Below the pieces are notes generated by a model, which saw only the letters and a list, made by a program, of their open reading frames with translations, was not told the origin of the DNA and did not search any database. A DNA stretch of 64,000 nucleotides, taken from contig JAUZTB010000080.1 of the NCBI GenBank assembly GCA_034780895.1, positions 13,160,098-13,224,097 on the forward strand, read 5' to 3'. The stretch comes from Rhynchobatus australiae (taxonomy: Eukaryota). This document shows positions 21,333 to 64,000 of this stretch, piece by piece. The stretch's first letter is position 1. Each line of letters begins with the position of its first letter. The position numbers and the translations under genes were made by a program.

Positions 21333-21398
21333 GTGGCATGATTCCCTGGCTGGCCAGCTCTTCGCGTGTCCGCCGTTGCTGAAGCTTTAGCTGCAGTA
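21333..21398 (-). CDS. MRTFA: RPEL repeat 1 exon of MRTF-A: (V)LQLKLQQRRTREELASQGIMP(P)
   Basis: 66-nt phase 1-1 exon. Branch point CACTAAC (21424-21430), pyrimidine tract and ...ctggcag| acceptor; CCAC|gtaagt donor. LQLKL..REEL..SQG is the MRTF-A form (MRTF-B has LQLRL..REQLVDQG). Too short to appear in the ORF track. Confidence 0.96.
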
Positions 21399-41145: not shown

Positions 41146-41272
41146 CTTCTTTTATACCACGGTAACCGTGCTGAATACTATCAGTGCAGCACTGTCCTTT
41201 CCATGTGCTGCCGCCAGTGACAGACAGAATCTCAGACAAGACAGACTTGATTTTCCTGCTCTTGTCCAGCAT
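41146..41272 (-). CDS. MRTFA: Putative alternative first coding exon of MRTFA: MLDKSRKIKSVLSEILSVTGGSTWKGQCCTDSIQHGYRGIKE, spliced to VLQLKLQQ
   Basis: ACCATGC start context, 127 nt (42 codons + 1) with no stop, donor GAAG|gttagt in phase 1 matching the RPEL1 acceptor. Resembles the human MRTF-B N-terminus MIDSSKK..EILT..KECLE..SLKE|VLQL (from memory). Non-repetitive, with CpGs retained upstream. Confidence 0.72.
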
Positions 41273-41880
41273 GGTAAAAGGCTGCTCGAGGCAAGAAGTT
41301 TCAGAGCTTTTCTAAGACAAACCGTTGCCTGCAGTGGTGAGCTTTGACAGTGCAGTGAGAACTCCTCCAACCCTTGTATCCAACTCTTGATATTCGATCC
41401 GTGTGACCTGATTCGCTCTGCACAGAAGCTTGCTTTTTAAAAAAGAGCAAATCTTTGTTTATAATCTAACATATGAAACAAGATCCGAAAATCACACAGA
41501 TTAAGAAGTTAGACAGATGTCCAACAGAAGTAGTCGGCAATTATGTGATGTAGGTTAACATTTGCATAGTCTGCACTTTACAAGACGGGCAACACACAGC
41601 AACAACCGACTCGATGCAACCAAAATAGTAAACACACAGCTGCCTGCTTAGCTCCAATCAACACATGCTGCTTAATTTTTTTTTAAAAAAGAAAGAAAGG
41701 TTTTTAATATCACTGAATCCATCAAGTTCCTTATTTATTTTCTGAGTAACACCACAGATGTTTATCCTTTTATCTTCCAGTCCTCCAGGTCTGTTACTGA
41801 CATTCAATGTAACCGTGCACACGAGTCGCTTGTCATCTGGGAAAGTACCACATCGCAAAACAGTCCCTCCGACATGAATT
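41273..41880 (-). promoter_or_regulatory. Candidate 5'UTR/promoter of the 41272 alternative exon
   Basis: Non-repetitive, with visibly more CpGs than the flanks, directly upstream of the ATG. Confidence 0.4.
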
Positions 41881-42139
41881 CTTGTGCTTTAAAATTGACT
41901 TGGACAATTATTTCAAGGTACAATCAGCCATTATTTCTACAGAATTATTTTCATCAAGTTAAGGATGATCAGAGGTGTGGGAGAGGTGGGGGGGTTTATG
42001 GTTGGTGAAAAGAAAAGTCAAATTCAGCCAGGTTCCTTGATCTTTCTGTCAGAAGGTGCTAGAGGAATAAAAGAGAATGGGGTTCAATTAGACTGCCCTT
42101 CACAGCTATATTATCTTACTCTTCCTCCCGGAAGAAAAC

Positions 42140-52060: not shown

Positions 52061-54119
52061 CTCACAGAACAATCCCCTTACCNNNNNNNNNNNNNNNNNN
52101 NNNNNNNNNNNNNNNNNNNNNNNNNNNNNNNNNNNNNNNNNNNNNNNNNNNNNNNNNNNNNNNNNNNNNNNNNNNNNNNNNNNNNNNNNNNNNNNNNNNN
52201 NNNNNNNNNNNNNNNNNNNNNNNNNNNNNNNNNNNNNNNNNNNNNNNNNNNNNNNNNNNNNNNNNNNNNNNNNNNNNNNNNNNNNNNNNNNNNNNNNNNN
52301 NNNNNNNNNNNNNNNNNNNNNNNNNNNNNNNNNNNNNNNNNNNNNNNNNNNNNNNNNNNNNNNNNNNNNNNNNNNNNNNNNNNNNNNNNNNNNNNNNNNN
52401 NNNNNNNNNNNNNNNNNNNNNNNNNNNNNNNNNNNNNNNNNNNNNNNNNNNNNNNNNNNNNNNNNNNNNNNNNNNNNNNNNNNNNNNNNNNNNNNNNNNN
52501 NNNNNNNNNNNNNNNNNNNNNNNNNNNNNNNNNNNNNNNNNNNNNNNNNNNNNNNNNNNNNNNNNNNNNNNNNNNNNNNNNNNNNNNNNNNNNNNNNNNN
52601 NNNNNNNNNNNNNNNNNNNNNNNNNNTGGCTGCTTAATGCATCACCATCTCCAGTTTTGATGAAAGGTCATTGACCCTAATGTTAACCATTTTTCTCTCC
52701 ACAGATGCTACCTAGCAATAAGTATTCCCAGCATGTTGTTTTCTTTCTGGATTTCCAGAAACCTCCAGAAGGTAAAACTCAAAGCACAGTAAAGCAGTAG
52801 GTGATTTGTTGATGTAGGAACCTGTGACACTAGAATCTATCGTCAGAATAAAATATGAAAGTAGTAAGGGCAAGCACCATCTTAGATGATGCACTTCAAA
52901 CAAGCAATTATATCATTAGTGAAACAGAGTATATTCTATCAACTGCAGGCACTGACCTGTGCTAAAACAAGATTTTTCTTTTAATGCAAAAGCCAAAATA
53001 TGATCTGGGTCACTGTACCAAAAGTGACCTTTTGTCAACACCCCAGCCCAGCAGCCAACCACCACCCCCTCCCCATGTTCTTCCCCCCACCCCGGCCAGA
53101 AATAGACTTGTGCATCTCACCTTGTAGCAACCTCTCCTCCTGTTGGCTGAATGTGGAGTGGCACTGGCGTCTAAGGCGTGGAGAAATCCGCCCTTCGTTT
53201 GCCTGCCCTTCCATCTGAGGTCCAGTTTCAGAGGAGTGCTCTTTGGGGAAGAAGAGTAGAGAGTCAATCTATCTCACAGCTCAGAAAAGTCCATCAGCAC
53301 TACTACCCCAGCCGCACAAAACAAAACTCCTGCTTTGAGACCAGGATGATGGATAGTCAGATATTGAAGTATAATGCTTTTGGGGGACTAAACAAGTTGA
53401 ATAAACAATGAAGCACCACAGACACTGCAGTGGAACTTCACTGGTAACCAATGCACAACATTCTACAGTAAAGCACAAGCTGCTTCATCCTTTGCCAAGC
53501 ACAGTCACAAATAATTTCCAGATTTCAGCCAAAAATAATGAATGCAAGTCCTAAAGAAACTGCCAAATGTTTTACTAACTCAAGAACTAAGGACATCACA
53601 TAGTAGCAGTCAAATGACAATGCCACCAACATAAAACACTTGCAATACCAATATTTAAATGCAAACATTTGATTGTCCCCAACTTCAGTCTGGCTGTGTA
53701 TCATAAAATACAGATTCCAGCCCTGTCTGCCAATGCTGACAACCTAGGTAGTGGAGTGGGTCAGATAGGGATTACCCCTTCTGTAGGGGTGCACCCACTG
53801 CCATGCACTGTGCTGTCACAAAGCTCAGACTGGGAACTACCTGGAGGCTATAGGTATGAAGATAGGCTTCACTATTCCAAGGTTCAGTTTGCAAATTTAT
53901 CATGTTGCATCAGGCATTCCCTCAAAGCAACCTACTTCTCCTTGCTTATCCAACGATAGACAAAGGCAAGTGTAAACTCCTGTGTCATGTGGAGAACTTC
54001 TTTAAACCTTCAAAAATATAATCTATTCATACAATTTCAAATACATACAATGCAGAAAATGCCAGTAAACAGTTCCATCACATGTAACATGACTCCAATT
54101 ACTTAACATTAGCATGACT

Positions 54120-57400: not shown

Positions 57401-59144
57401 AGCGACCACAATAGAATCGAATGAGCTGTACAACTAATCAAGGATTTACATGAATCGAGGGGGTAAGCTTTTTTGGCTAATATTTTTAGAGTACTAAAAG
57501 TTTGGAACTTACAAGATTAATGTACTAACACAATGAAACTTGAAAATCTACTGAACTTTAAAATATTTGCAGGTAAAATTACAGCTCACAAAATTAGATT
57601 TTTAGGATTACAGAATTTGCTCAACAGCAATTATGGATTGGTATACCAATAAAATCTCATTGTATAACAATACAAATTTCCCCAGATACGCACCCCACTC
57701 AAAAGGCCACACCTAGAGTTGAGGGGGAAAAAAGAGAAAGGCAAAACAAAAAGTTTGAGCATTCCCTGCCAGATAAGCATTGATTTTTCATACATTTGAT
57801 CTTATACAAGGGCCTTCCCTATTTCAAACCAATGAAGTGCTTAACCGGCATCATAACACTAGCTTAGCAAGTTAATGGACTGCAATAGTATATATACCTC
57901 AGATTTGACTCCCAATGTTCAGAGTCTGAAGTGTAGAGACATCAGCTGCTGATCTTCTAACACAGAACAAAGCACAACATTAAGCTCGAGCCATTGGAGT
58001 CCTGACATTTTTATCACAACTCCCAAATAGGTGAAGGCGTTTGGAGGGGGTTAAGGGGAAATATGAAAAATTCAAAACAGTGTTGAGTCCATAAACAGCA
58101 CCAAGAATTGCGTGGCACATATTCAACTTGCTATGCTAAGAGACAAGTGAGAAACAGCAAAAGAATGTGTTCAAATTATCAGTAAATTGGCCATCCAAGC
58201 AGGATTGCAAAATAAAAGTTAAACTACAGTACTCTATCCCCAGGGCTCAATTCTCTCTGGAAATCAATCTCCCTCAGATAACTGGGACAAGAACAGTGTT
58301 AGTCCACTCCACAGCAAATCAAGCTGTCCAGCAGTGAACAGCCACTTGAACCAAATTCCACACAACCCTACCCAGTCATGTGCTGCTTTACCTGCACTAT
58401 ACATAGTGGATAACGAGCATCAGATTTCTTGTTCCAAACAATGCCATTCTTATGCAGTCGCTCGTAGTACTTTGTCTTGGCCACAGCAGCTTCACCAGTC
58501 TTTTTGCACAGACATATCACTGGACACAACTGAGTATACAGGCATGTTCTGATGTAGTCCCCTCCCATTAATATTTAGGTGGAGCCAACATGCATGAGCT
58601 CACCCTTAGAGAACAGCCTTGAATACACAATGCTTTCACTGCGCTGTGAACTTTATCCTGTGAGGACAATCACTCGCTTTCTTCCACAAAGAACGTTAAC
58701 CCTTTCATTCAGCTTGCTTTTTTTAAAAAAAAGAGAAAAGACTGCATGCACCAACTTCCTTTCTGAAGTGATGAAATGAAACATCTTTGTCTCTTCTACT
58801 CTCAAATATTCCTTTGCAGGTGTTTAAAAACTGTGGAGCTTTTCCTCTAGTCTTTCCTTCCACATACAGTCAAGCTCGGGTCTGGAATTATTTCCAAATG
58901 CACAAAGTGCCCAGGTTTCTTCCATCCACCTCGGTAACTATAATATGGGCCCATACCTTCCAATTTAAAATAAATCAATGCTTCCCAAGTGAGGTTGAGG
59001 TTCTTAAAATTGAGATAACTTTACAAACCCTTTATGAAAACTGGTGCCACCTTGAGTCCATTCAAAATCTACATCAACAATCACACACTTATTAGTGACC
59101 AATCTCAGGAAGGTAGTGTCCTTAAAATATTTCCGGCTAGAGAG

Positions 59145-63049: not shown

Positions 63050-63239
63050 CATTTTTCCTCTTGTTCAAAGGCGAAAAGCCGTTGCTTGACTGCAGCGTGA
63101 GCTCTTGCAGTTCATTTGCGACCGCTTCACTCTGTGGACTCGGAGCTGATCCATCTTCTTCACTATCGCCAACCCCACCACCGTCTGACCCATTACCAGA
63201 AACGGCGAGGGGAAGGCTCACTTCATTCGGCAAATCCAC
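63050..63239 (-). CDS. MRTFA: MRTF-A long-isoform N-terminal coding exon. Whole exon is 63050-63257; coding from a putative GTG start at 63239: VDLPNEVSLPLAVSGNGSDGGGVGDSEEDGSAPSPQSEAVANELQELTLQSSNGFSPLNKRKN
   Basis: Acceptor ttccctctccaccttctgttttcattgttacag|G at 63258/63257 and donor AATG|gtgagc at 63050/63049 (phase 1). The PSPQSEAVANELQEL and PLxxRKN motifs match the MRTF-A N-terminus. Joins in frame to the RPEL1 exon (G+TA = Val). Confidence 0.93.
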
Positions 63240-64000
63240 TTTGACTTGAATATTAACCTGTAACAATGAAAACAGAAGGTGGAGAGGGAATTGATTAAAA
63301 AATGAACACATTCTGACCACTGTACTATGTTCTAACAAATGAACAATAAAAACAGGTGAAAATCAATTAATTTTCAATTTGGAAAATTAAGCTCTTTGCA
63401 GCCATTAGTAATGTGAATCTGCTCTGAGAACTTTGCATGACAAGCCCCTGGAAAACATAGATCGCTTTCTTTGTCTCAGGATCAAACTTACAGCAAAGAT
63501 AAGCACCCATAACCAAATTCACCACTACCTCAGTATATACCAGCAGTTTTTGAATATCATTAACTCAAACCTACCACCAAGCTTGTGGTCTTCATGACAG
63601 CAATAGTCCCCACTTTACACTGCAGAGGTGCAGACCATCTGCAGCAGCAACCTCAAAGCACTGAAGATGACCACTGGTATCTCATAAAGTCCTCCAAATC
63701 CACTGGAGTGGGGAACCAGGCAGTGTGTACTTCCTAGCCAATGTGCCCAGCATCGTGGCTCTAATTACATTCAAATAACTCTGATGGATGGGACATACCA
63801 TCTAAGCTCCATAATAGTAAGACATTTCCACAAGGACAAAGTGTTTCAAGGATGTTCTCAAAGGCTCCATTAAGCAAATGAGACATTATAGGAATGGAGG
63901 AGCACCACTTGGGCAGGCACTGGGCATCTGAAGTCTCTTCAATGACAGCACAATGAGGATGAGTGAAAACAAAGGAGCACAGAACCTCCAAGCAATGTGT

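Follow-up and report, generated by a model that had tools for sequence, protein, structure and literature searches.

A probable alternative first coding exon in MRTFA of Rhynchobatus australiae and its likely paralogy with the first exon of MRTFB

A stretch of 127 bases in the window, i.e., the whole 64,000 nucleotides of Rhynchobatus australiae DNA analyzed here, probably serves MRTFA as an alternative first coding exon. Shark gene models splice it to the RPEL1 exon in phase 1; it likely goes back to the ancestor shared by MRTFA and MRTFB, and the isoform predicted from it would lack the N-terminal export signal and show weakened ERK docking. The exon is real and has orthologues in publicly available predicted models from throughout the jawed vertebrates.

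The gene and its N-terminal exons

The gene carried by the window is MRTFA, and MRTFB and myocardin are located on other contigs. Three myocardin-family loci were identified in the genome, on contigs C80 (that of the window), C127, and C62. In a FastTree tree based on 18 sequences and 570 columns, from which the first exons were left out, the window gene groups with shark MRTFA (support 1.000) within the MRTFA clade (0.997). The summed tblastn bit scores are highest on C80 for all four MRTFA queries, on C127 for all three MRTFB queries, and on C62 for both myocardin queries, with small margins in the case of the coelacanth (692 vs 636) and bird (686 vs 599) MRTFA queries. The first-pass annotation had taken the gene to be MRTF-A and had named an MRTFB phylogeny as the outcome that would speak against its reading; the phylogeny came out as MRTFA. 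On C127, an ERCC4 domain was found some 94 kb upstream of that gene's long exon, which fits the ERCC4-MRTFB linkage in humans. ADSL and SGSM3 are presumably the neighbors to be expected for MRTFA; ADSL_C matches occurred on C1 and C3499, and the sole RUN match on C80 lies about 4 Mb off, which is uninformative as regards the synteny of C80. The exon shares 8–12 identical residues with the MRTFB exons and 10–11 with the bird and coelacanth MRTFA exons, as might be the case if the gene were MRTFB and the exon merely its expected first exon, but given the tree, the bit scores, and the separate B-type locus beside ERCC4, this explanation has practically no probability left and was counted as already refuted.

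On the minus strand, the ATG of the exon lies at 41272-41270 in the context ACCATGC, and 42 codons, none of which is a stop, lead to G41146, followed by GTTAGT. The acceptor (...ttttctctggcag/TA) begins at 21398, and the final G and TA together form a valine codon followed by LQLKLQQRRTREELASQGIMP, which corresponds to phase 1 and places the RPEL1 exon in frame. The sequence therefore agrees with the alternative N-terminal coding exon proposed initially, including its exact ATG, length, donor, and phase. Since the stop-to-stop frame around it is only 56 aa long, the exon was missing from the ORF track. The MRTFA intron contains 167 ATG-to-phase-1-GT frames of 30–55 codons, and the case for this exon therefore rests on its conservation. 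No Pfam families were detected with four exon peptides. Apart from one peptide match on C63 (E = 7.9) within an unrelated frame, which was judged to be due to chance, the search in the species' own genome returned only the exon itself.

The order of the exons in the window is the long exon, the MTLL-type remnant, the cassette, the MLD exon studied here, and RPEL1 (Table 1). The roles assigned to the motifs of the long exon are those given in the accessible text of PMC4963197. The cassette exon, which is conserved in the Mustelus and Stegostoma models, would separate RKN from VLQL if inserted after the long exon; the mouse SOLOIST/MRTFB i4 microexon also splits these two elements, and this likeness is one of analogy only. 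The remnant resembles the N-termini of shark MRTFA models and the MTLL peptide of myocardin, and may be decayed, non-coding, or the result of an assembly error. In the intron after the RPEL1 exon, the short frame 20547-20380 on the gene's (minus) strand resembles a cathepsin L-type propeptide. Elsewhere in the window, the fragment 24051-23812 (minus strand) resembles a LINE reverse transcriptase ORF.

Table 1. Features of the MRTFA gene in the window (window positions).
Feature	Position	Strand	Remarks
Long N-terminal exon	63050..63257	-	Phosphosite motif SPQSE, NES1-like stretch NELQELTLQ, and KRKN (one half of the ERK D-box); donor in phase 1
Short first exon of the myocardin/BSAC (MTLL) type, remnant	58392..58447	-	Strong donor CAG/GTAAAG kept, stop in frame; homology by eye
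120-nt phase-1/phase-1 cassette exon	53121..53240	-	Conserved in sharks; joined to RPEL1 in run X1
Putative 5' UTR and promoter region (likely)	41273..41900	-	TATAAA at 41463, raised CpG; partly under the depth-2 contig of X1
Alternative first coding exon, MRTFA	41146..41272	-	ATG at 41272, 42 codons + 1 nt, donor AAG/GTTAGT; orthologues in RefSeq models
Shared RPEL1 exon, peptide VLQLKLQQRRTREELASQGIMP	21333..21398	-	Phase-1 acceptor; both sides spliced in RNA run X1

Conservation in MRTFA and relationship with the first exon of MRTFB

A search with the peptide returned one protein among three candidates, the MRTFA-like isoform X2 of Mustelus asterias (74% identical and spliced to VLQLKL). 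When the exon and the junction were used together, 94 proteins were obtained among 638 candidates; since this search favors carriers, these matches give the range of the exon and not its frequency or prevalence. The ML(D/E)...L(K/R)E-type pattern was present in 91 of the 94, the exceptions being isoform X5 of Arvicanthis, a truncated model from a cichlid, and the Stegostoma copy, which is shorter. The RefSeq/UniRef predicted models carrying an orthologous exon at the same junction belong to sharks, birds, turtles, the coelacanth, the gar, and teleosts (both co-orthologue types). Outside the sharks these exons are 40–47 residues long, and there are 42 residues in Heptranchias, birds, and turtles, as in the window. 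The predicted shark models, all of which join the exon to VLQLKL, have 31 (Mustelus, XP_078093740.1/741.1), 28 (Heptranchias, XP_067830723.1/724.1), and 29 (Stegostoma, XP_048377084.1) of the 42 residues identical. The 41 extra upstream residues of the Mustelus model are excluded in the window by an in-frame stop at 41314. The similarity of the window exon to its database orthologues amounted to z values of 16.8–19.0 in sharks, 8.6 in a bird, and 6.5 in the coelacanth, and was not significant in the case of the Scatophagus exon (z 0.9). The exon had been described as hidden and as surviving in chondrichthyan MRTF-A; neither description holds, as it already stands in public MRTFA models and its carriers extend to bony vertebrates from teleosts to birds.

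The MLD exon also differs from the short N-terminal exons previously described. The exon 3' of MRTF-A BSAC / MKL1_S is likewise an alternative MRTFA first exon; according to the accessible literature, NES1 and the ERK-binding motif are lost with its use, and the three RPELs are retained. It encodes a 15-residue MTLL-type peptide, and its counterpart in the window is likely the remnant at 58447-58392. An identity between the MLD exon and this type (15–18-residue MTLL... peptides) was rejected: the peptides are different, and the turtle and coelacanth clusters contain an MLD exon beside a separate BSAC-type exon. The turtle and zebrafish clusters also contain the long exon, and together these clusters indicate that the MLD exon is an exon in its own right. 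The rat MELODY transcript also comes from MRTFA and has a 5' exon of its own, but it keeps the long-exon Asn before RPEL1, as stated in the accessible text of PMC3821035, and was therefore ruled out.

The sole mammal among the 94 matches was Arvicanthis niloticus, whose MRTFA X5 (P0094) shows 19 identities to the bird exon (0/2000 shuffles) and has Pro instead of Met. The accessible text of a review (PMC8079280) gives five human MRTFA variants, all of which are based on either exon 3 or exon 3'. Since the rodent copy is without its Met and the listed human variants are limited to these two types, the exon has likely decayed in mammalian MRTFA, a conclusion drawn from one rodent model and one list of human variants, and the odd lineage appears to be the mammals and not the sharks. 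No description of this apparent decay was found in the open-licence papers searched. A protein labelled Lampetra planeri (P0045) has a teleost-like MRTFA N-terminus, possibly due to contamination or mislabelling, and was left out as lamprey evidence.

In the database MRTFB models of bat, opossum, lizard, turtle, frogs, and coelacanth, the N-terminus is encoded by a 39–40-residue MID...SLKE exon, which we take to be the start of mouse MRTF-B isoform 1. The numbering of S66 and of RPEL1 (40–65) supports this correspondence (PMC13605766, accessible text), and isoform 1 is reported to be neuron-enriched in the mouse (PMC8593110, likewise). The MID exon and the window exon use the same RPEL1 junction, have similar lengths (39–40 vs 42 residues), both replace the long exon, and share an M-(L/I)-D start and an (L/I)KE end; the window exon differs in that it sits in MRTFA and has few identical residues. 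Compared with eight MRTFB exons, it obtained a mean global score of 31.25 and ranked first among the 167 candidates, the next-best candidate from a different ATG scoring 2.1 and the highest score among 220 candidates of the C127 intron being 4.4. Compared with nine MRTFB exons, it gave z = 7.6, and z = 4.3 once 3 + 4 terminal residues had been trimmed (0/1000 shuffles each). The alignment of the MRTFA exon with the MRTFB exon by hhalign gave P = 5.9e-4, with a probability score of 28.9. With an MRTFB HMM, the window exon ranked first among 2173 frames, but with E = 1.8, and it was absent from the best 6 when the profile was built without sharks.

These data suggest that the MRTFA MLD exon is very probably paralogous to the MRTFB MID exon, and that its origin likely predates the MRTFA/MRTFB duplication, as had been proposed in the first-pass annotation. 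The list of shared motifs given there was overstated: EIL is present, but is common to sharks and MRTFB only, Cys occurs in seven of the nine MRTFB exons, and Ser at position 5 is present in the window exon and replaced by Thr in the other three sharks. The human MRTF-B N-terminus quoted there equals that of the bat MRTFB (P0220), the match being made to the bat sequence. The two exons might also be of independent origin, their likeness resulting from Met starts, the donor consensus, and constraints adjacent to RPEL1. The low identity would fit this explanation, as would the fact that the coelacanth, gar, and teleost MRTFA cores were not above shuffles when compared with MRTFB (68 to 854 of 1000); the rodent core was not significant either, and a phase-1 AG/GT donor can be expected to favor a final codon ending in A. 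We consider it improbable, since even after trimming, the window exon, three shark exons, and the bird and turtle exons score above shuffles (z 3.1–6.1; bird 4.2 and turtle 4.4), and since the last residues of the other exons spliced to this acceptor are unrelated. No MID-type exon was detected in the MRTFB of this genome by tblastn, an HMM, a global scan, or a genome search run without a positive control, and as 7806 of the 58758 bases of the intron are N (13%), this absence is unproven. No description of the exon or of its paralogy with MRTFB was found in the open-licence papers to which the literature search was limited.

A candidate third paralogue was detected in myocardin at L078:1208-1328 (G000:C62:30081208-30081328, plus strand), in the form of a 40-codon MVD...LKG frame with the donor GAG/GTTTGA, located 2.6 kb before RPEL1. 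It ranked first among 2367 candidates in four scans (6.1 vs 2.6 for the next); its trimmed core was not significant (258/2000 shuffles), and it was missing from all the teleost myocardin models among those listed. The myocardin long exon (G000:C62:29962732-29962935, plus strand) ends with PPLTERKN like those of MRTFA and MRTFB (tblastn E about 1e-6), and the myocardin locus of this genome contains a long exon, an MTLL exon, and the candidate MVD frame, in an order matching that of the window. One might tentatively picture an ancestral vertebrate myocardin-family gene with long (...RKN), MTLL-type, and M(L/I/V)D-type exons in this order, all feeding RPEL1, the set of which was partitioned between the paralogues: cartilaginous-fish myocardin would have kept all three, mammalian MRTFA would have lost the third, and mammalian MRTFB would use the third as its reference start.

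Evidence for transcription and splicing

Spliced RNA was available from a relative (run X1), and run X2, which is identical to the window and may be its source, was left out of the count. A 6344-nt contig of X1 covers the RPEL1 exon exactly and continues into the LKSPAAFHE exon downstream; of the 30 letters upstream of RPEL1, 29 agree (by eye) with the cassette exon where it ends at 53121. The junction 41146->21398 was not seen in the reads of this one sample, where the MLD exon is covered only by a separate 170-nt contig of depth 2 over 41205-41365, which ends inside the exon. The exon might thus be rarely used or a decaying relic in this species, as it apparently is in rodents, and the neighboring MTLL-type exon does have a stop here. 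This is nevertheless quite unlikely, given that the ATG, frame, and donor are intact and that identity with the three sharks is so extensive; X1 is moreover a single sample, the contigs of which cannot rank isoforms.

Upstream of the exon, the nearest ATG is at 41472 and an in-frame stop occurs at 41314-41312. Since no phase-1 acceptor was found from this stop through the first 20 codons, the possibility that the exon is an internal one read in frame, as it is in turtle models, was ruled out in this species, and a first coding exon is favored. The CpG o/e ratio in the region upstream is 0.40–0.68 vs 0.22 for the window, and this and the TATAAA are hints of a promoter only. A perfect CArG box (CCTTTTAAGG) is present at 42294-42285 on the minus strand, about 1 kb upstream of the ATG; as it lies within a repeat-rich stretch, it is probably incidental.

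The predicted isoform and its significance

MRTF N-terminal isoforms set the basal nuclear export and the ERK sensitivity of SRF signalling. In mouse MRTF-A, NES1 consists of NELQELSLQ and is potentiated by the phosphorylation of S33, and the D-box overlapping RPEL1 is required for the phosphorylation of S98 by ERK; no S98 phosphorylation was found in BSAC, as far as the accessible text goes, and the legend of Figure 8B gives, for MRTF-A as well as for MRTF-B, variants having or missing NES1 and the docking site (PMC4963197). The ERK docking motif is RKNVLQL (PMC8593110, accessible text). The MLD exon contains neither a NELQELxLQ stretch, nor an S33-type SP site, nor an intact RKNVLQL.

An internal promoter near 41.4–41.9 kb would start the transcript, and the GTTAGT donor would then be joined to 21398, as in the three shark RefSeq models, a junction not seen in the reads here. 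By its sequence, the product would carry the 42 residues in place of the long exon with its SP site, NELQELxLQ stretch, and KRKN half of the D-box, and would retain the three RPEL motifs and everything downstream. Judging from the mouse BSAC data, this protein would still be regulated by G-actin, and both its N-terminal Crm1 export and the ERK-driven phosphorylation of its LKSP serine would be reduced. The proposed isoform would act like MRTF-B isoform 1 or MRTF-A BSAC and would probably be tissue-restricted. We thus predict, with moderate confidence, that the isoform is regulated by actin and that its N-terminal export and its ERK input are weaker.

ERK input may be lost only in part, since one basic residue is kept at the junction (IKE-VLQL vs RKN-VLQL), the Lys before VLQL being retained in nearly all copies, and since S66 of human MRTFB (in the numbering that goes with an N-terminus of 40 residues) is a frequent predicted ERK site, although its peptide is common to isoforms (PMC13605766, accessible text). 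These points would also suit the possible, if somewhat doubtful, case of an exon that is real and ancient and acts as a promoter switch only, its peptide being a neutral spacer and its K-x2-LxL remnant still docking ERK, so that the regulation of the protein is little changed. The middle of the peptide diverges fast among lineages, MRTFB S66 is heavily phosphorylated (PMC13605766), and the rat full-length, BSAC, and MELODY forms all activate SRF, their overexpression having no drastic effect on dendrites according to the accessible texts (PMC3821035, PMC8593110). However, the length (42 aa in sharks and birds), the MLD start, and the L(K/R)E end are kept across jawed vertebrates, the copies of birds and turtles hardly differ, and NES1 is missing regardless of docking.

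As the exon is already present in public predicted models, what is gained here is an evolutionary link and not a new system. If this link is correct, the MRTF-A of chicken, zebrafish, and sharks would have an isoform that mammals appear to be without, which would bear on the comparison of MRTF-A and MRTF-B phenotypes across model species, and the family would clearly exemplify how alternative first exons of an ancestor are shared out among paralogues.
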